From Gemmatimonadota bacterium (lineage in GTDB: Bacteria > Gemmatimonadota > Gemmatimonadetes > Gemmatimonadales > Gemmatimonadaceae), in the NCBI GenBank assembly GCA_040389905.1, contig JAZJZK010000007.1:127482-191481 (forward strand): a stretch of 64,000 nt of DNA, read 5' to 3'. Shown here piece by piece: positions 6,318 to 48,057 of the stretch. Made by a program: the position numbers and the translations under genes. The notes under the pieces were generated by a model. The model was not told the origin of the DNA, searched no databases, and worked only from the letters and a program-made list of their open reading frames with translations. The first letter of the stretch is position 1; each line of letters begins with the position of its first letter.

Positions 6318-6346
6318 TTGACACCAATCCGGTGTTCGCCTAAGAT
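6318..6346 (+). promoter_or_regulatory. Sigma70-type promoter for the rtcB/tRNA locus
   Basis: TTGACA (6318-6323), 17-nt spacer, TAAGAT (6341-6346). Confidence 0.75.
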
Positions 6347-6513
6347 GCTCGGCAGGGAGTCGCGTCCCGATGTTCACGTGTCGTTCAGCTATGCATATTC
6401 ATGCATTGTGAGACGGCCAGACCCGAAGGCTTAGCCCTTCGCGTTGTTCATCGGCGGCGCGATTTGTCGTTTTGGCCTCCTCGCACTTTCAGGAACTCAA
6501 TCAATCCAACTGC

Positions 6514-6702
6514 ATGACGACCTCACTTACCCACCTACTCGCGAACGACCGATGCGCCGGCTCCTGCCAGCGTGCCGCGAGCTCGATCGCGCGAATTGGT
6601 GGCGACGCACCGAGGCCAGTTGCAGTACAAAAAGCCTATCCGTGGACGCAGGTCAACGGAACGAACGACGCAGGCTCCGCAGGGGGAGGCCGTACTTCTT
6701 AG
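6514..6702 (+). CDS. Putative 62-aa leader peptide (MTTSLTHLL...SAGGGRTS)
   Basis: ATG ORF between promoter and terminator hairpin; its 3' end can pair with the terminator 5' arm; weak RBS. Confidence 0.45.
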   Translation: MTTSLTHLLANDRCAGSCQRAASSIARIGGDAPRPVAVQKAYPWTQVNGTNDAGSAGGGRTS

Positions 6703-6737
6703 AGTACGACATTCAACTTCGGACACGGGACAGCGAC

Positions 6738-6782
6738 AACGCCCCGCCTGCGCAAACGTGCCAGGCGGGGCGTTCTGCATTC
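6738..6782 (+). terminator. Attenuator-type terminator hairpin
   Basis: Perfect 13-bp stem aacgccccgcctg/caggcggggcgtt with an imperfect U-rich tail. Confidence 0.6.
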
Positions 6783-6784
6783 AC

Positions 6785-6800
6785 GCTGTTTGACAAGTGA
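6785..6800 (+). promoter_or_regulatory. boxA-like antitermination motif, copy 1
   Basis: GCTGTTTGACAAGTGA; 14/16 identical to 8475-8490; resembles rrn boxA. Confidence 0.5.
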
Positions 6801-7036
6801 TGATCCGAAATGACGTACACTCGTCGTCGGCCGGCGCGACATGATGCTCCATGCAGAGAGACACGCGACTCCCCTGTATGTGGTATCCGCTGTCGTTGCC
6901 GCGCTGACAGCGACGTCCCAACTGTTTTGCCTCTGGAGCGCTCGCGGTGCCCTCTCGCCACCTCGCTCCAGGGGCAGGTCAACCAACACCATTCAACCCC
7001 AGGAACGACGCGTATGGGCGTTCGCCGCGCGTCAAC

Positions 7037-7151
7037 GGGTCCGTAGCTCAATCAGAGCACGGTGTCGCCGCACGTACTCCCATTGCCTGACGAAGGCCGG
7101 ACCGTGAGGAGCACGCCACCGAAGATGCGGGTGCAAATCCCGCCGTCCCGA
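7037..7151 (+). ncRNA. tRNA-like RNA with a 52-nt insert replacing the anticodon loop
   Basis: TA-GCTC-aatca-GAGC D arm; CGGTG/CACCG anticodon stem (7060-64/7117-21); GCGGG-TGCAAAT-CCCGC T arm; imperfect acceptor stem. Confidence 0.7.
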
Positions 7152-7215
7152 TTCCTGCCTGGTCGGATCATCACTGCCCAGGGCAATTCAGCCACACACT
7201 CACGAGTACCGCATC

Positions 7216-8442
7216 ATGAAGATTTTTGGTCAGCACGACGAGAAGACTCTCGTCCAGTTCAATAACGTTCGCGCGCAGGCGGTCGACGCTGCGCTGATGG
7301 CCGACGGGCATGTCGGCTACGTCATGCCCATTGGTGGTGTGGCGTCATACCGGAATCAGGTGTCCGTCGTCGGAGTCGGTTTCGACATCGCGTGCGGCAA
7401 CGCCGCCATTCGTACGGACCTCACCGTTGCGTCGCTCGGTGAGAGCCCGGCCGACGTGCAGCAGGCACTCTCGTCGCTCGCCGATGAGATCGCGGGAACG
7501 ATCAGCTTCGGTATCGGCCGGAAGAACCGCGCCGATGATGCACCGGTCGATCACGCGCTCTTCACCGACGCTTCCTGGGACGCTGTGCCCGCGAAGCACC
7601 GGCAGGCGCTGCAGGTGAAGGCGCGGCAGCAGCTTGGAACAGTCGGAAGTGGCAATCACTATGTCGACGTCTTCGCGGACGAGCGGGGCACGTTGTGGGT
7701 TGGCGTGCACTTCGGTTCGCGCGGATTCGGACACACGGTCGCGTCGGCATTTCTTGCGCTCGGCCAGGGCAAGGAGTGGGGCGAGCGCGTGCCGGAGACG
7801 GAAGTGCTGCTCGACATTGGGCAGCCGGTCGGCCACGACTATTGGCACCTGATGAATCTTGCAGGCGAGTACGCGTACGCCGGACGCGAATGGGTTGCCC
7901 GCAAGGTTGTCTCGCTCCTTGGGGGGACCGAGATGGAACTCGTGCACAACCACCACAACTTCGCGTGGAAGGAAGAGCACGATGGTGAAGAGGTGATCGT
8001 CATCCGGAAGGGCGCGACGCCTGCGTTTCCTGGGCAGAAGGGTTTTGTCGGCGGTTCGATGGGTGACGACGCCGTGATCGTGAAGGGAACGTCGGCGAGC
8101 ATTGCGTCAACGGAGGTGCAGAGCGCGCAGCGCGCCTCGCTCTACTCGACGGTCCACGGCGCAGGACGCGTGATGTCGCGCACGATGGCCGCAGGAAAGC
8201 GCGTGCGTCGCACGGGCCGGCAGCTGAGCCGAGGGCTCATCTCGCCCGGCATGATGGAGAGTTGGGTGAAGGAGAAGGGCGTCACGCTCCGCGGCGGCGG
8301 TGTGGACGAGAGTCCTCACGTCTACCGTCGACTGCCTGAGGTGCTCTCTGCTCAGGAGGGGACGATCGAAGTGCTGCACGTCCTACGGCCGCTGGTTGTC
8401 GTGATGGCCGGGGAGAACGAGTTCGATCCGTACAAGGACTAG
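7216..8442 (+). CDS. rtcB: RtcB family RNA ligase (3'-phosphate/cyclic phosphate to 5'-OH)
   Basis: DGHVGYVMPIGG, VGFDIACG, GTVGSGNHY, HFGSRG, HNHHN, RKGATPA, GSMG, HGAGR, DESP motifs. Confidence 0.96.
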   Translation: MKIFGQHDEKTLVQFNNVRAQAVDAALMADGHVGYVMPIGGVASYRNQVSVVGVGFDIACGNAAIRTDLTVASLGESPADVQQALSSLADEIAGTISFGIGRKNRADDAPVDHALFTDASWDAVPAKHRQALQVKARQQLGTVGSGNHYVDVFADERGTLWVGVHFGSRGFGHTVASAFLALGQGKEWGERVPETEVLLDIGQPVGHDYWHLMNLAGEYAYAGREWVARKVVSLLGGTEMELVHNHHNFAWKEEHDGEEVIVIRKGATPAFPGQKGFVGGSMGDDAVIVKGTSASIASTEVQSAQRASLYSTVHGAGRVMSRTMAAGKRVRRTGRQLSRGLISPGMMESWVKEKGVTLRGGGVDESPHVYRRLPEVLSAQEGTIEVLHVLRPLVVVMAGENEFDPYKD

Positions 8443-8474
8443 ACACCGGTAGACGCGCGTGGGGGCATCCGGAT

Positions 8475-8490
8475 GTTGTTTGACAACTGA
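8475..8490 (+). promoter_or_regulatory. boxA-like antitermination motif, copy 2
   Basis: GTTGTTTGACAACTGA, directly upstream of the tRNA cluster. Confidence 0.5.
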
Positions 8491-8509
8491 CGTGAGTCTG
8501 TGGCACACG

Positions 8510-8596
8510 AAGTATCCGCGGGCGAGGTTCGATTCCGCGCTGTCTGATGGTGCCCCGGCAAGGCGCGTTCGAACTCGAATCTTCTCGCGGGTACTT
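8510..8596 (+). ncRNA. Long hairpin RNA containing a T-loop motif
   Basis: 13-bp closing stem aagtatccgcggg/ctcgcgggtactt; internal GGTTCGATTCC. Confidence 0.45.
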
Positions 8597-8597
8597 T

Positions 8598-8670
8598 CTC
8601 CCTGTCGGCAATGGACAGTCAACGAGCCTCCGAAGCTCGATTAGTGCGCGTTCGAATCGCGCCGGGGAGA
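8598..8670 (+). tRNA. tRNA-Arg(CCG), no encoded CCA
   Basis: Acceptor CTCCCTG/CGGGGAG; anticodon arm CGAGC-CTCCGAA-GCTCG; T arm GCGCG-TTCGAAT-CGCGC; weak 3-bp D stem. Confidence 0.8.
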
Positions 8671-8686
8671 CTCTCCGCCGCACCAC

Positions 8687-8755
8687 ACCTCCGCCTGCGG
8701 ACCAGGCAACGGGTTTCCTAAACCTGTCACGAGAGTTCGAGTCTCTCCGGGGGTT
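8687..8755 (+). tRNA. tRNA-Arg(CCT) with short atypical D region, no encoded CCA
   Basis: Acceptor ACCTCCG/CGGGGGT; anticodon arm CGGGT-TTCCTAA-ACCTG; T arm GAGAG-TTCGAGT-CTCTC. Confidence 0.75.
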
Positions 8756-8831
8756 CTGGCATTAGCAGGCTCGATGAGTGCCGCCAGCGACATCTGGCAG
8801 ACGGTGCGTTCACGTCTCACTCGGCCTATCT

Positions 8832-8904
8832 GTCTCGGTAGCTCCAGCGGTAGAGCGCCAGCCTGAAGAGCTGGGCGACGGTGGTTCGAATCCATCCCGA
8901 GACA
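8832..8904 (+). tRNA. tRNA-Phe(GAA), no encoded CCA
   Basis: Canonical cloverleaf: GTCTCGG/CCGAGAC, GCTC/GAGC, CCAGC-CTGAAGA-GCTGG, GGTGG-TTCGAAT-CCATC. Confidence 0.92.
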
Positions 8905-8910
8905 CTCAAC

Positions 8911-8982
8911 GACCGGCACCTCTGGCGAGGTGGCGCGCCTGCAAAGCGCGCAAACAGGGTTCGATTCTCTGGCCGGTCTCCA
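8911..8982 (+). tRNA. tRNA-Cys(GCA) with atypical D region, CCA encoded
   Basis: GACCGGC/GCCGGTC acceptor, U73 discriminator plus CCA; CGCGC-CTGCAAA-GCGCG; CAGGG-TTCGATT-CTCTG. Confidence 0.85.
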
Positions 8983-9206
8983 CCTTCGATTTCGCTGTTG
9001 GCGCATGTCACGCCCCATTGCGACAGGGATTTGTCGGCAGGGCGTGACTCATTGCGGTGTACGCGGCGTCTGTCAAAGGCGCCTAAGCCCCGAGGGTACA
9101 AGGACGGGCGAGTATGACCGCAGCGTGGCGGGATCGGCCTCATGCGCGACGGCCCCTCGCCACTTCGCCGGGATCGCACAGTCAGGATGATGTGCTCGCT
9201 GACCGG

Positions 9207-9237
9207 CCCCTAATCGACCCCTAATCGCCCCTAATCG
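9207..9237. repeat. Tandem repeat (CCCCTAATCG)x3
   Basis: Copies at 9207, 9218, 9228. Confidence 0.85.
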
Positions 9238-9371
9238 CCATCTGGGAAGGCTCCGGCTCAAAACACTTGGTTCGAGCGTTGCCGCAATACGATCGATGGC
9301 TCTCTTTGGCGTCGATGCCAGTCAGGATACCGGGTCAGAGTACGTCGTACGTATGTGGTTGTACGATGTAC

Positions 9372-10559
9372 TTAAATACGTCTCTCAGCCCATCGCCGCC
9401 TGTCCGCTATCAGCAACGGAATCATCACCACGTACAGCATTGCGCCAAGTATCCAGACGGCCCCGATCCACCGAGCGCGCGTGTACGTGTAGACAAACGT
9501 CCCCACGAGCGGCCCCACAATCGCCGTGAGGCTCATCAGGCTGGCGAGCACCCCTTGCAGTTCACCCTGCCGAGCCTCGCCGACCTCACGCGACATCATC
9601 GCCTGAAGCGCCGGTATCGCGACGCCACTCAACGCGAAGAGCGGCGAGATTGCGAACGCCACCCAACCCTGCGTCGCCAGCGCGAGCAGGATGAAGGCCA
9701 CCACATCGGAACAGATCCCGATGATGATCGTGCGAACCTCTCCAACGCGCGCGATCAGTGGTCCTGTGAGCAACCCTTGCGACCCTGCGTGCCAGATGCC
9801 GAACGACGCGAGCGACAAGCCGACCATCAGTCCGTTCCACTGGAACTTGTCCTGGCCGTACAGCACCCAGACCGTTCCCGGAATGTTGCCGATCAGCCCG
9901 AACAGCGTGAATACGCCGAGGAGCGGCAGGATGATCGAGAGTCCGAACGCCCAGCGCATTGGGGCAAGGGGATTGAGCGTCGCGAGCTGGAAACGCTCGA
10001 CTGATCTGGCGCGTGATTCCGGAAGGAGAAAGAAGGTGAGGGCGAGTGTGGCGCCGTTGAGTGCGGCCGCCAGCACGAAGGGCGCGCGGAGGTGCAGGTC
10101 GCCAAGCACGCCGCCGATTACCGGTCCGACAATGAAGCCGACGCCGAACGCAGCGCTCATCCATCCGAAGCGTTTCGCTCGCTCGTCCTCGGCGGTGATG
10201 TCGGCGATGTAGGCGGTCGCGACGGCCATGTTCGCGCTTGTGAGACCGGCGATGGCGCGGCCTATCAATAAAACGGCGAAGAGCGGCGCCAATGCCATGA
10301 ATACGTAGTCCACCGTCGCGCCGGCGATCGAGACAAGCAATACGGGCCGGCGCCCGTATCGGTCGCTTAGTGCGCCCAGAACCGGCGAGAAGACGAACTG
10401 CATGAACGCATAGAGCGATAACATCACGCCGTACAGCAACGAGATGTCGCTCGAGCCCGTGATCTCCCTCAGCAACCCGGGAAGGATCGGGAAGATCAAT
10501 CCGATGCCGACCGCATCGAGCGTGATGATCGAGAGAATGACGACGAGCTGCCGGTTCAT
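9372..10559 (-). CDS. TetA-like (TCR/DHA1) MFS efflux pump
   Basis: LDAVGIGLIFPILPGLL, GALSDRYGRRPVLL, AYIADIT, QGELQG; 395 aa, about 12 TM. Confidence 0.9.
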   Translation of the reverse strand: MNRQLVVILSIITLDAVGIGLIFPILPGLLREITGSSDISLLYGVMLSLYAFMQFVFSPVLGALSDRYGRRPVLLVSIAGATVDYVFMALAPLFAVLLIGRAIAGLTSANMAVATAYIADITAEDERAKRFGWMSAAFGVGFIVGPVIGGVLGDLHLRAPFVLAAALNGATLALTFFLLPESRARSVERFQLATLNPLAPMRWAFGLSIILPLLGVFTLFGLIGNIPGTVWVLYGQDKFQWNGLMVGLSLASFGIWHAGSQGLLTGPLIARVGEVRTIIIGICSDVVAFILLALATQGWVAFAISPLFALSGVAIPALQAMMSREVGEARQGELQGVLASLMSLTAIVGPLVGTFVYTYTRARWIGAVWILGAMLYVVMIPLLIADRRRWAERRI

Positions 10560-10796
10560 GGATTCGTGCGAGGGGGGACGACCGCGGACCGGATCCGTGC
10601 GCTTGACGCCGTCGGCCGATTGAGACATCATACTGTCGGCGGCGATCAACGCCCAACCTCTATGACTCCGCCCCAGCTGGAGTCCTGTGCGAGGCAAAGG
10701 GGGGTAGACCTTCTGATCAGTATCGTCGGTCCTTTGCGCCATCACGGGCGCGCTGCTGGGGAGTGGCCCGTGGTGCATCCAAAGGAGACATTGACG

Positions 10797-11619: not shown

Positions 11620-11654
11620 GCCACTTCCTGTTGCGCGCAACCCCTCTGCTCCTC

Positions 11655-12755
11655 ATGAACCTTCCTATCAATCCGCCCCTTCTCCCGATGCTCGCCAAGC
11701 GCGCTGGCGAGCTTCCCGAGGGGGACTCCTGGATCTTCGAACCCAAGTGGGATGGGTTCCGCACCCTCGTCTTTCGCGACGGCAACGAGATCTTCATCCA
11801 GAGCCGAGACGAGAAACCGCTCAACCGGTACTTCCCGGAATTGGCGGACGTTTTGCTCGAGCAGTTGCCTGATCGCTGCGTCCTGGATGGAGAGATCGTC
11901 ATTGCCGGCCAGCACGGACTGGAGTTCGAATCGTTGCAGCTTCGTCTGCATCCCGCGGAATCGCGCGTGCGAAAGCTCGCGGAAGCGATGCCGTCGTCTG
12001 TGGTGTTCTTCGACGTCTTGTGCATCGGTGATCGCGACCTGCGCGCGCTGCCGTTCGCGGAACGACGCGCCGAGTTGGAAGCGCTGCTGAACAGGGCGAC
12101 GGCACCGGTGCATATCACGCCGGCGACGCGCAACCGCGATATCGCCGCCGACTGGTTCCGCCGATTCGAAGGCGCGGGGCTCGATGGCGTGATTGCCAAG
12201 GGAGAAACGAGCAGCTACGAGCCGAACAAGCGCGTCATGGTCAAGGTGAAACATGAGCGCGATTGTGACTGCGTCGTCGCTGGCTTCCGTTGGCACAAGC
12301 GTGGGGACCGCGACGCCGTCGGCTCGTTGCTCCTGGGCCTCTTCGATGACTCCGGAGCACTTCATCACGTTGGCGTGTGCGCGAGCTTCACCGATGCGAA
12401 GCGGAAGGAGCTCGTCACCCTCCTCGAGCCGTTCCGTGTCGACGCCCTCGTCAACCATCCATGGCGCGAATGGGCCGCGCATCAGACGGATGACACAGGT
12501 GCGCAGCGAAAGCCCGGCGGCGGAAGCCGGTGGAGCCAAGGGAAGGACCTGTCGTGGGAGCCCTTGCGCCCGGAACTCGTCGTCGAGGTGGCCTATGACC
12601 ACATGCAGGGCGCGCGCTTTCGTCACACGGCGCAATTCCGCCGGTGGCGCAGCGACAAACGCCCAGTGGACTGCACGTTCGCGCAGCTCGAAGTTGTTCC
12701 GCCGCAGGAGTTGATGGCTATCTTCGCCGGTACATCTCGCGCCACACGCGCGTAG
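11655..12755 (+). CDS. ligC: ATP-dependent DNA ligase, LigC type
   Basis: PMLAK, EPKWDGFR, LDGEIV, FFDVL, LDGVIAK, KVKH, EVAYDH, RFRH, RSDK. Confidence 0.9.
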   Translation: MNLPINPPLLPMLAKRAGELPEGDSWIFEPKWDGFRTLVFRDGNEIFIQSRDEKPLNRYFPELADVLLEQLPDRCVLDGEIVIAGQHGLEFESLQLRLHPAESRVRKLAEAMPSSVVFFDVLCIGDRDLRALPFAERRAELEALLNRATAPVHITPATRNRDIAADWFRRFEGAGLDGVIAKGETSSYEPNKRVMVKVKHERDCDCVVAGFRWHKRGDRDAVGSLLLGLFDDSGALHHVGVCASFTDAKRKELVTLLEPFRVDALVNHPWREWAAHQTDDTGAQRKPGGGSRWSQGKDLSWEPLRPELVVEVAYDHMQGARFRHTAQFRRWRSDKRPVDCTFAQLEVVPPQELMAIFAGTSRATRA

Positions 12756-14028
12756 GATCGTCGTCTGGATCGGGCGTCACCTGCGGTGGCCGAATCGCTT
12801 CGGGCACGGCTCGAAGATTCACTCGAATGCGCGTCCACGTCGACGAGCGGCCGCGCATCGAATCGACGAGTACGTCGTCAACGGCGAGATGGGACGCGAC
12901 GTCGGGATACCGCGCCTTCCATCGTTCGAGCCCAGCGAGCGCGGCGGACTTGTCAGGCGAGTTCGCGACGACGATGAGCGGCATCTTGGCGCGCGGAGCA
13001 CGTTTGCCCGCCGTTGTCTTCGCCGCGCCCTTCGCACGCGACGGTGCCACGCGGGGCGCTTCTCCATCCATTTTGCGAAAGTGCGGCGGCCAGGGCGCGT
13101 CGCTGATCCCCGCCGCTTCATCGCGATCCGCGAGCGCGAGCAGCGCGTCGAGCGATCCAACCGAGCCATCCATCGCAGCGTGCGGATCTCCAATGTCCGC
13201 GAAGCGCGCGGGCATAGAGAGGACTGTAAAGTCCGCCGGGTCGCAGAGCGGGACTTCCGCCCACGCTAGCGGTGCGGACACACGCGCATCGGGGAGCGGC
13301 CGAATAGAGTAGGCCGACGCCGTCGTTCGATCCTTCGCGTTCTGATTGTAGTCGAGGAAAACGCCCTTACGCTCTTCCTTCCACCACTTCGATGTCGCGA
13401 GCGAGGGAATGCGTCGCTCGATCTCTCGCGAGAATGCCAGTGCCGCGCGCCGCACCTCGGTGAACGTCCACCGCTGCTCGATGCGCACGTTGACGTGCAT
13501 GCCGCGCGAGCCACTGGTCTTGGGCCACCCGCGGAGCCCGAGCTCCGTGAGCAATGCATTGGCTTCCATTGCAACCGTACGAACGTCCACCCACTCGACG
13601 CCCGGGCCCGGATCGAGATCAATGCGCAGCTCGTCGGGATGATCGAGATCGCTGGCGCGAACGGCGTGCGGATGGAGCTCGATGCAACCCAGGTTCACGA
13701 CCCACGCGAGTCCTGCCGCATCGTCGACGACGATTTCTTCGGCGGTGCGCCCGGAAGGGAATGACAGTGTCACGGTGCGCAGCCAGGCCGGTCGCTTGTC
13801 CGGCGCGCGCTTCTGATAGAAGGGCTCTGCTTCCGGGCCGTTGACGAAGCGCTTGAGCACGATCGGCCGGTCGCGGATTCCATTGATCGCACCGGCCGCC
13901 ACCGTCATGTAGTAGTGCACGATGTCGAGCTTCGAGAGCTGCACGCCTTTGGTGAAATACGGCTTGTCCGGATGCGTGATATCGACGTCGCGATCGTCAA
14001 AAGTCAGGCGGTGTGGTTTGTCGGACAT
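12718..14028 (-). CDS. LigD-type polymerase domain protein (AEP, Prim-PolC-like) with C-terminal extension
   Basis: THPDK, KRFVNG, FYQKR, DELRIDLDP, KTSGSRGMH, FLDYNQN, AYSIRP, VSAPL. Confidence 0.9.
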   Translation of the reverse strand: MSDKPHRLTFDDRDVDITHPDKPYFTKGVQLSKLDIVHYYMTVAAGAINGIRDRPIVLKRFVNGPEAEPFYQKRAPDKRPAWLRTVTLSFPSGRTAEEIVVDDAAGLAWVVNLGCIELHPHAVRASDLDHPDELRIDLDPGPGVEWVDVRTVAMEANALLTELGLRGWPKTSGSRGMHVNVRIEQRWTFTEVRRAALAFSREIERRIPSLATSKWWKEERKGVFLDYNQNAKDRTTASAYSIRPLPDARVSAPLAWAEVPLCDPADFTVLSMPARFADIGDPHAAMDGSVGSLDALLALADRDEAAGISDAPWPPHFRKMDGEAPRVAPSRAKGAAKTTAGKRAPRAKMPLIVVANSPDKSAALAGLERWKARYPDVASHLAVDDVLVDSMRGRSSTWTRIRVNLRAVPEAIRPPQVTPDPDDDPTRVWREMYRRR

Positions 14029-47456: not shown

Positions 47457-47960
47457 ATGCGGCGTCTGCGCGGAATTATTGGAGTGGCCGTAACGTGGGG
47501 CGTCGGTCTGTCCGCGCTTGCGACGAGTTGCCTCGCAGTCGCTGTGGGCACAGGGATCGTTCCGCGCCTCGTTTTTGGGCTTGGTGAGATTGCGCAGGTC
47601 GCCCTTCGCGGGTTCCTGGTTGGCGCTGCGATTGGAGTTCTGTTCAGCGGCGCGCTCATCACGGCCGAGCGCCGTCGTACGCTGGCGTCATTGTCTACCA
47701 AGCATTCGGCGGCGTGGGGATTCCTGGCGGGTGCGTGTGTTCCGTTGCCGTTCGCGATGGCATTTGGTGTACTGCCATTGTTGTCCACACCCGTGCTCGC
47801 CGCGGGTACTTTTGGCTACGGTGTGATCGGCATGTTGCTCGCCGCAGGCACGGTGGGGATGGCGAGGCGAGCGCCCGCGTTGCCTTCGGAAACAGTACAG
47901 CCGTACCCAGTACTTGGTACAACCACGGACGTACGAGGAACCCGGAACCTGGTACCCTGA
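47457..47960 (+). CDS. Hypothetical membrane protein
   Basis: Four hydrophobic segments. Confidence 0.6.
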   Translation: MRRLRGIIGVAVTWGVGLSALATSCLAVAVGTGIVPRLVFGLGEIAQVALRGFLVGAAIGVLFSGALITAERRRTLASLSTKHSAAWGFLAGACVPLPFAMAFGVLPLLSTPVLAAGTFGYGVIGMLLAAGTVGMARRAPALPSETVQPYPVLGTTTDVRGTRNLVP

Positions 47961-48057
47961 CTGGCATCCACGCCAAAAGGAGCCGTCGACACAGGCGATC
48001 CTTCGCCGAGCGCGATGCAATGTGCATATTTCATGGCATCTGCCGACGGGAGAAGCC

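Follow-up and report, generated by a model that had tools for sequence, protein, structure and literature searches.

The locus described here raises the question of how an RNA-repair operon can be switched on in an organism in which the regulator RtcR was not found. It lies in a stretch of 64,000 nucleotides (the window) from contig JAZJZK010000007.1 of a Gemmatimonadota bacterium of the family Gemmatimonadaceae (GenBank assembly GCA_040389905.1), where rtcB, present in a single copy in the assembly, is flanked by non-coding DNA with predicted hairpins. Genes for RtcA, RtcR and Ro60 (TROVE), which a first-pass annotation made from the sequence had not seen in the window, gave no match in the whole genome of the organism either, whose assembly is 84.6% complete, a limit carried by every negative result for this genome; RtcR was found in 0 of 30 genomes bearing the leader described below. 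In the reading that we consider rather probable, the RtcB repair operon stands behind two predicted terminators, T1 and T2, and a hairpin RNA encoded downstream of both, H1, is a natural transcription-activating RNA that blocks T1 in trans.

The conserved leader and the hairpin H1

The closest relatives of this rtcB belong to named Gemmatimonadota genomes, mostly Gemmatimonadaceae, and the non-coding DNA 5' of the gene is conserved among relatives. It forms a leader of about 560 nt with the order sigma70-type promoter, T1, upstream open reading frame (uORF), T2, rrn-type boxA and hairpin H1, of which no description was found in the literature. The loci compared comprise 91 distinct leader copies pooled from genome-derived loci by a search anchored on the 5' motif of T1, 80 rtcB loci, and 52 metagenome loci with enough flanking sequence that were chosen on T2 alone. 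The exact pattern of promoter and motif, with TTGACA 26-38 nt upstream of the same 5' motif, occurs in 31 of 401 genomes of the phylum and 16 of 147 genera (reversed-pattern control 0), and a slightly looser pattern in 50 of 251 genomes of the family (control 1). The sigma70 promoter proposed in the first-pass annotation is borne out by this conservation; the promoter scan of the window, with one promoter found and 1.1 expected by chance, is weak alone. 

Within 4 kb of the leader rtcB, TROVE or hen1 was found in 57 of the 65 loci with at least 2.5 kb of sequence, and the cargo varies between loci: RtcB, Ro60, Hen1-Pnkp, tRNA-shaped Y-like RNAs and array tRNAs. Upstream of 63 leaders no gene recurs except within clusters of 8 close relatives. 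Full leaders with H1 were also observed in loci L163, L164, L453, L454 and L147, with no rtcB, TROVE or hen1 in the fetched sequence; these are possibly stand-alone producers of H1. The full layout was present in none of 96 viral matches and in none of 12 viral rtcB loci, no leader match was found in plasmids or phages, and the plasmid-borne rtcB of Gemmatirosa kalamazoonensis has no leader within 5 kb. Among 4227 Rfam models, matches reached the gathering score in the tRNA family alone.

T1 begins with the near-invariant 14-mer that is referred to here as the 5' motif. In 90 of the 91 leaders a strand located 23-109 nt further downstream pairs with the first 12 nt, and at least five T within 10 nt after the stem were counted in 73 of the 91, compared with 0.6% of control windows, a count in which the script mis-picked a few partner strands. 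Most of the variation in the partner strand is G-U wobble (position 5, C in 45 and T in 40; position 11, A in 48 and G in 37), and the sequence of the insert varies freely between leaders. From these features we infer that T1, which is located upstream of the leader ORF, terminates transcription. The 5' motif can first fold as a mini-hairpin of 4 bp with a 6-nt loop (-4.7 kcal/mol). Pairing of the motif with rRNA was considered and rejected, as only 2-mismatch matches were present in the 16S rRNA, the spacer and part of the 23S rRNA at six loci.

T2 is coupled to the uORF, which is present in 52 of 55 leaders examined. The peptide sequence is poorly conserved, and the stop codon lies 29-40 nt upstream of T2 in 47 of the 52. 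A strand inside the uORF covaries with the inner 5' arm of T2 across 53 hairpins: the arm CCTGCG occurs with GCAGG in 30 of 31 cases and CCTGTG with ACAGG in 8 of 11, the remaining three of which would pair G-U, and two further arm variants match the uORF strand in two of two cases each. The first-pass annotation had described a leader ORF with a terminator and had proposed ribosome-sensing attenuation rather than RtcR. Both proposals agree with the covarying antiterminator, the fixed spacing of stop codon and T2, the rrn-type boxA and the negative RtcR searches. A copy of T2 with its own uORF, and with neither T1 nor H1, was observed in the same genome at G000:C14:55163 before an efflux ORF that we take to be MATE-like from the type of its sequence; the T2 module also serves on its own.

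H1 folds as a hairpin of about 90-100 nt, and its stems are highly divergent between loci. Its apical 7-nt loop (6863-6869), together with the weak closing stem (6863-6873 in all), is the exact complement of nucleotides +1 to +11, and this complement to the 5' strand of T1 is present in cis at the apex of H1 in 83 of the 91 leaders. H1 was found in 29 of 31 loci picked on promoter and 5' motif without selection for H1, and in the 52 loci chosen on T2 motif and H1 occur together in 30, neither in 18, and one only in 3 and 1. In single-sequence folds 50 of 51 H1 sequences have more loop-enclosing pairs than shuffles (median z -3.5), with 6.4 of 7 loop bases unpaired compared with 2.9 in shuffles. 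The partner bases at positions 5-10 are invariantly Watson-Crick (83 of 83, partly forced by the search pattern). A duplex energy of -21.5 kcal/mol was calculated for H1 and its target, compared with -12.1 kcal/mol for the same bases in the T1 of the window, and the gain on cofolding amounts to 8.5-10 kcal/mol on nascent leaders of 25-100 nt and to 4.5 kcal/mol once T1 is complete. The polymerase reaches H1 about 400 nt beyond the point at which T1 would take effect, so any role of H1 in T1 termination must be in trans; lying behind both terminators, H1 probably acts on transcripts other than the one that carries it.

A further group of leaders contains nothing but the promoter and T1, and a gene begins a short distance behind. 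Such a T1-only leader precedes rtcB in genome G452, where H1 is located on another contig, and others precede hen1-pnkp elsewhere (TIGR04074 above cut-off). The hen1 gene is present in 23 of 250 family genomes searched, 17 with a full leader and 6 without; T1 motif and promoter were found within 240 nt of hen1 in 8 of the 17 genomes that carry a full leader at another site and in 0 of the 6 that have none. In five other genomes the full leader itself is followed, a few kb further on, by hen1. T1, the complementary hairpin H1 and these satellite leaders, all missed by the first-pass annotation, are the unusual part of the system. A protein of about 105-140 aa is encoded in 32 of the 91 operons (e.g. 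L444:4862-5179) and was not found in the own genome; it has no match in Pfam or NCBIfam, and the Atlas places it in nameless Gemmatimonadota clusters with a weak lead to FlbD (0.79).

Table 1. Features of the operon, with positions in the window; z compares the folding of a window segment with that of its shuffles.
Feature	Position	Strand	Evidence or remark
Sigma70-type promoter, TTGACA-17-TAAGAT	6318..6346	+	Pattern and conservation of the -35 hexamer
5' motif, near-invariant 14-mer; 5' strand of T1 and predicted target of H1	6355..6368	+	Identical in 89 of 91 leaders
Terminator-like hairpin T1 with long structured insert	6355..6473	+	z -3.1; 3' strand 6449-6465, U-rich tail to 6473
uORF (leader peptide, 62 aa)	6514..6702	+	Small hairpin 6692-6707 has the stop codon in its loop
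Antiterminator strand inside the uORF	6669..6674	+	Complementary to the inner 5' arm of T2; covariation in 53 T2 hairpins
Terminator T2, uORF-coupled attenuator	6738..6782	+	Hairpin 6738-6774; z -5.7; alignment
boxA-1, rrn-type antitermination element	6785..6797	+	16-nt identity to the rrn spacer boxA of G326
Stalk, perfect 13 bp, 6796-6808 with 7163-7175	6796..7175	+	Encloses H1, hpD, P1 and the tRNA-shaped RNA
Hairpin RNA H1, predicted trans-acting antiterminator	6812..6918	+	z -4.3
Hairpin hpD, asymmetric internal loop	6929..6976	+	z -5.1; BLAST matches in several rtcB loci
Hairpin P1, directly 5' of the tRNA-shaped RNA	7006..7033	+	z -2.1; stem covariation
tRNA-shaped RNA	7036..7150	+	Rfam tRNA, 26.5 bits, just below cut-off
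rtcB, RNA 3'-phosphate/5'-OH ligase family, 408 aa	7216..8442	+	PF01139, 210 bits
boxA-2	8474..8487	+	Matches rrn boxA variants of relatives
Long hairpin with two T-loop-like motifs	8508..8598	+	z -4.6; no homolog found
tRNA-Arg(CCG), extra copy, weak D stem	8598..8671	+	ARAGORN; canonical copy on contig C18
tRNA-Arg(CCT)-like, truncated D arm, likely decayed	8685..8757	+	ARAGORN; canonical copy on contig C4
tRNA-Phe(GAA), canonical, array-type	8832..8905	+	Rfam, 60 bits
tRNA-Cys(GCA)-like, encoded CCA, 4-nt D loop	8908..8982	+	ARAGORN; perfect acceptor and anticodon stems in sequence
3' hairpin, not conserved	9007..9048	+	z -3.3

The proposed circuit and its rivals

In the circuit that we propose, T1 would form on the first 12 nt of the transcript and let through few polymerases. 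With ribosomes finishing the uORF T2 would form; with stalled ribosomes the uORF strand would pair with the 5' arm of T2 and the polymerase would read on. The direction of this control rests on the analogy with whiB7, because a ribosome-footprint calculation did not reproduce the switch. boxA and Nus factors may then carry the polymerase across the untranslated RNAs, so that H1 would accumulate. The complementary loop of H1 is predicted to seed on the nascent 5' end, to extend to 11 bp and to prevent T1, the long insert of which would provide a time window for binding. Once T1 is blocked the operon would open further, in a positive feedback in which H1 takes the place that the protein WhiB7 has in its own loop. 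H1 would also open the satellite T1-only leaders of hen1-pnkp or rtcB, and a regulon of RtcB, Ro60 and Hen1-Pnkp would be amplified without RtcR. We lean, by a small measure, towards the wider claim that an RNA-repair regulon has H1, a small transcription-activating RNA of natural origin, as its master regulator. In this view H1 would be made only on ribosome stalling and would open its own operon as well as unlinked hen1-pnkp and rtcB, in a protein-free and possibly bistable manner, and the cargo would include unpermuted Y-type RNAs, some with a Pro, Ile or Arg anticodon arm.

Several observations weigh against this circuit. The tail of T1 is interrupted, and the terminator scan of the window gave a count not above chance (4 compared with 3.6); equilibrium folding with a ribosome footprint gave no clean switch of T2 (0.85 to 0.78); RNAalifold on the H1 sequence alignment gave 0 pairs. 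Compensatory change between 5' motif and H1 loop is absent in every set examined, and changes in the stem-side bases of H1 and in target position 11 are uncompensated, so the pairing rests on complementarity and co-occurrence. A changed H1 seed was found in none of the T2-anchored metagenome loci (first 120 stretches), other bacterial phyla not having been searched. Loci L145 (genome G364) and L165 (genome G098) have T1, uORF and T2, with no H1 in cis nor among the folded matches of the genome; both assemblies are fragmented and the search there covered two seed variants only, and a BLAST search for H1 in five genomes was too insensitive, missing two known copies. Among the 80 rtcB loci, motif and H1 are present in 25, the motif only in 1, H1 only in 5 and neither in 49, so the leader marks only a subset of rtcB loci. 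The eight T1-only hen1 cases come from two genera, and with G452 three lineages are represented.

Since H1 and its target nowhere show compensatory change, a reading based on a protein has to be weighed. Either the 14-mer (GGGA-N6-TCCC) would serve at the start site as a DNA operator, comparable to that of TrcR in Anabaena, with a second inverted site downstream, or an RNA-binding protein would act on the T1 strand with H1 as decoy. We regard it as unlikely. In its favor, the motif is a palindrome that does not vary and sits where transcription is predicted to start; sites bound by proteins are typically invariant and show no covariation, satellite leaders are compatible with a regulon of any kind, and a small protein is encoded in about a third of the operons; in Anabaena trn, rtcB and dpsA are controlled by promoter repeats (PMC8421152). 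A DNA site, however, needs neither a paired strand with U-tail (90 of 91 leaders) nor a hairpin of about 90 nt with a second copy at its apex, the 3' strand of T1, which H1 would mimic, varies, no linked regulator gene was found, and the small protein was not found in the genome of the window. A little less likely still, H1 would pair with the 5' motif in cis or post-transcriptionally; the long transcript would thereby be closed or stabilized, or the short product of T1 targeted for degradation, and the outcome would be either no activation at all or negative feedback, as for the CI RNA of phage P4. Complementarity is equally compatible with such pairing, H1 is in cis in most leaders (83 of 91) and cofolding is still favorable after T1 is complete; on the other side, T1-only leaders keep the motif without H1 in cis and were seen only where H1 exists elsewhere, and binding opposes T1, since the target is the strand that T1 needs.

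The model of the first-pass annotation, plain uORF attenuation of rtcB with a module of spare or decoy tRNAs, would make T1 a 5' stabilizing hairpin and H1 a further decoy RNA. T2 alone attenuates before the MATE-like gene in the own genome, two leaders lack H1, and array tRNAs occur in some operons, all of which suits this model. It leaves the U-tail after T1 (73 of 91 compared with 0.6%), the complement at the apex of H1 and the satellite leaders unexplained, and its tRNA block is not conserved; as an account of the whole locus we find it improbable. Activation by H1 in trans remains the reading that we prefer. Its novelty lies in the control circuit and holds only if H1 works as proposed; the cargo represents a variant of RNA-repair operons already known.

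The tRNA-shaped RNA and the remaining cargo

The tRNA-shaped RNA consists of a bulged acceptor stem, a D arm, a T arm and an extended anticodon arm of about 65 nt that ends in a bulged helix resembling that of Y RNAs (7083-7100), with no anticodon and no encoded CCA. In 27 sequences 93% of cells are paired in the proposed fold and 17 of 38 pairs have two-sided change; 0 of 500 shuffles reach it, slid controls pair 36-42%, and RNAalifold agrees. Its order is acceptor-D-insert-T-acceptor and not the order motif-V-T-closed acceptor-D of YrlA; these RNAs thus resemble Y RNAs yet fall outside the YrlA type, because YrlA is permuted. Sister RNAs 5' of TROVE genes carry the YrlA motif GNCGAAN0-1G in the bulged helix, and some keep an anticodon arm; in the subtype of the window the bulged C is kept in 17 of 27 sequences. 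A Ro60 gene was found neither in the own genome nor in 8 of 10 genomes with this subtype; it is adjacent in L040, L053 and L061, and TROVE is present in 11 of the 80 rtcB loci. As judged from its fold and from the sister RNAs, the RNA is supported as Y-RNA-related, and the tRNA-like RNA and its Y-RNA link had both been anticipated in the first-pass annotation. It may be the b7a-tRNA, itself known second-hand, and tRNA-ordered RNAs may already be listed in the supplements of PMC4201824; a predicted function as nuclease decoy or RtcB cofactor is plausible. In L092 (476-598), L095 (92-220), L141, L234, L253 and L287 tRNA-ordered RNAs were observed in which an anticodon arm for Pro, Ile or Arg is retained and a Ro60-type helix is inserted between D arm and anticodon arm; they are possible intermediates between tRNA and Y RNA. 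A hammerhead core in the insert was rejected, as the insert is a covarying hairpin, and an intron-containing tRNA as RtcB substrate is disfavored, the insert being a continuous conserved helix without anticodon.

boxA-like motifs are present in 5 of 6 complete rrn loci of relatives, and the NusB family is present in the own genome. A boxA within 150 nt after rtcB was found in none of 80 other loci. boxA accompanies tRNA cargo, in 12 of 20 loci with boxA compared with 10 of 60 without, kin not being independent. The 13-bp stalk is a possible processing stem; a contiguous stalk of changed sequence was seen in only 4 of 20 boxA leaders, and it was rejected as a general feature after boxA. The stem of P1 covaries in 15 of 15 aligned sequences. 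A pseudoknot between the P1 loop and the tRNA-like insert was rejected, as the insert changes without compensation, and so was a single large RNA of the GOLLD/ROOL kind, since tRNAs lie between the modules in relatives and Rfam gives no match. While both boxA motifs, rtcB and the long hairpin of the first-pass annotation were all recovered, three hairpins (H1, hpD and P1) and not five were found between boxA and the tRNA-like RNA. A 14-nt inverted repeat flanks rtcB (7191-7204 with 8491-8504), its second arm directly after boxA-2; conservation of it was not seen.

The four tRNAs noted earlier correspond to four ARAGORN calls, of which Phe alone passes Rfam, and both Arg(CCT) and Cys have cut-down D arms. 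The 3' hairpin in Table 1 folds better than shuffles; the 3' segments 8758-8831 and 9120-9180 do not (z -0.1 and +0.2). The best match of the Phe gene in the genus lies in a long tRNA array, L468, and is followed there by Cys. No homologous tRNA block was found in 54 genomes of the genus, and a tRNA was called within 3 kb in only 12 of the 80 rtcB loci, with 14 tRNAs around rtcB in L102, so that spare or decoy tRNAs are not supported as the core of the module. The Phe and Cys genes of the window are the sole assembled copies, which says little because several other tRNA types are also missing from the assembly. On sequence grounds the block is read as a non-conserved, partly decayed remnant of an L-array. 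In L102, L063 and L066 rtcB lies inside larger tRNA arrays beside an ORF with a motif that is presumably HNH-like. Three tandem repeats of 10-11 nt follow the last hairpins at 9206-9237. A dispersed repeat of about 80 nt, REP/MITE-like and often in inverted pairs, lies at 9293-9372 and 47909-47989 (63 BLAST matches on 20 contigs). A gene of the Tet(A)/(B)/(C) family of efflux MFS proteins (9372-10562, reverse strand; NF012174 above cut-off) converges on the 3' end of the operon, and genes for an ATP-dependent DNA ligase and a LigD primase-polymerase are located 2.4 kb downstream (11631-14028).

Comparison with known systems

The T-box uses tRNA, and the pT181 and P4 CI RNAs promote termination. 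In synthetic small transcription activating RNAs (STARs), an intrinsic terminator is prevented by an RNA in trans whose sequence complements its 5' stem, read-through being the result, and the 2015 preprint describing them states that no natural small RNA activating transcription was known until then (10.1101/022772). H1 is likewise an 11-nt exact complement of the T1 5' stem; unlike the engineered STARs it is natural, its seed lies in the loop of a hairpin, and the site that it targets is located upstream of it. The small RNAs DsrA, ArcZ and RprA act on rpoS in trans by blocking Rho (PMC6524683); there, as predicted here, an RNA in trans decides on premature termination, although theirs block Rho. 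The same review mentions in general terms, in a passage that gives no example, that an antisense RNA may induce an antiterminator (PMC6524683).

In whiB7/wblC a uORF of loose sequence is followed by a terminator after its stop codon, an antiterminator forms on poor translation and WhiB7 amplifies itself (PMC10274678). The present leader shares the uORF at fixed spacing (47 of 52 at 29-40 nt) and the covarying antiterminator within it; unlike in whiB7, where a protein amplifies at the promoter, the predicted amplifier here is an RNA acting on an extra terminator. In Salmonella the operon rsr-yrlBA-rtcBA unites RtcB, Ro60 and tRNA-mimic RNAs in one stress operon (PMC7790460). RtcB and a tRNA-mimic RNA also stand together in the window, but RtcR and RtcA were not found, Ro60 was not found in the own assembly, and control is by a sigma70-type promoter with predicted attenuation. 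The Y RNAs of the YrlA type have the permuted order motif-T-closed acceptor-D (PMC4201824; 10.1101/312249). Conserved D and T arms are common to YrlA and the tRNA-shaped RNAs, and the sister RNAs linked to TROVE also have the Ro60-type bulged helix with its motif; unlike YrlA, the tRNA-shaped RNAs are ordered as a normal tRNA, and their helix is part of the anticodon arm. A second-hand description has the b7a-tRNA as a tRNA-like RNA next to RtcB and in some cases Rsr (10.1101/312249); a flotillin-like ORF, recalling its Band-7 context, was seen once, 5 kb downstream in L154. In Anabaena the extra tRNAs of the trn L-array are co-regulated with rtcB, and hen1-pnkp is also induced by translation stress (PMC8421152); in contrast to its promoter direct repeats and 26 tRNAs, four partly decayed tRNAs are present here, which do not amount to a long array.

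The known cases in which an RNA in trans activates at an intrinsic terminator are mainly engineered. If H1 acts as proposed, the leader would represent a new kind of bacterial circuit, with positive feedback placed behind a ribosome-stall sensor and several RNA-repair systems under its control, and it would account for the activation of RtcB, Ro60 and Hen1-Pnkp in the absence of RtcR. The tRNA-ordered Y-type RNAs of its cargo bear on the origin of Y RNAs from tRNA.

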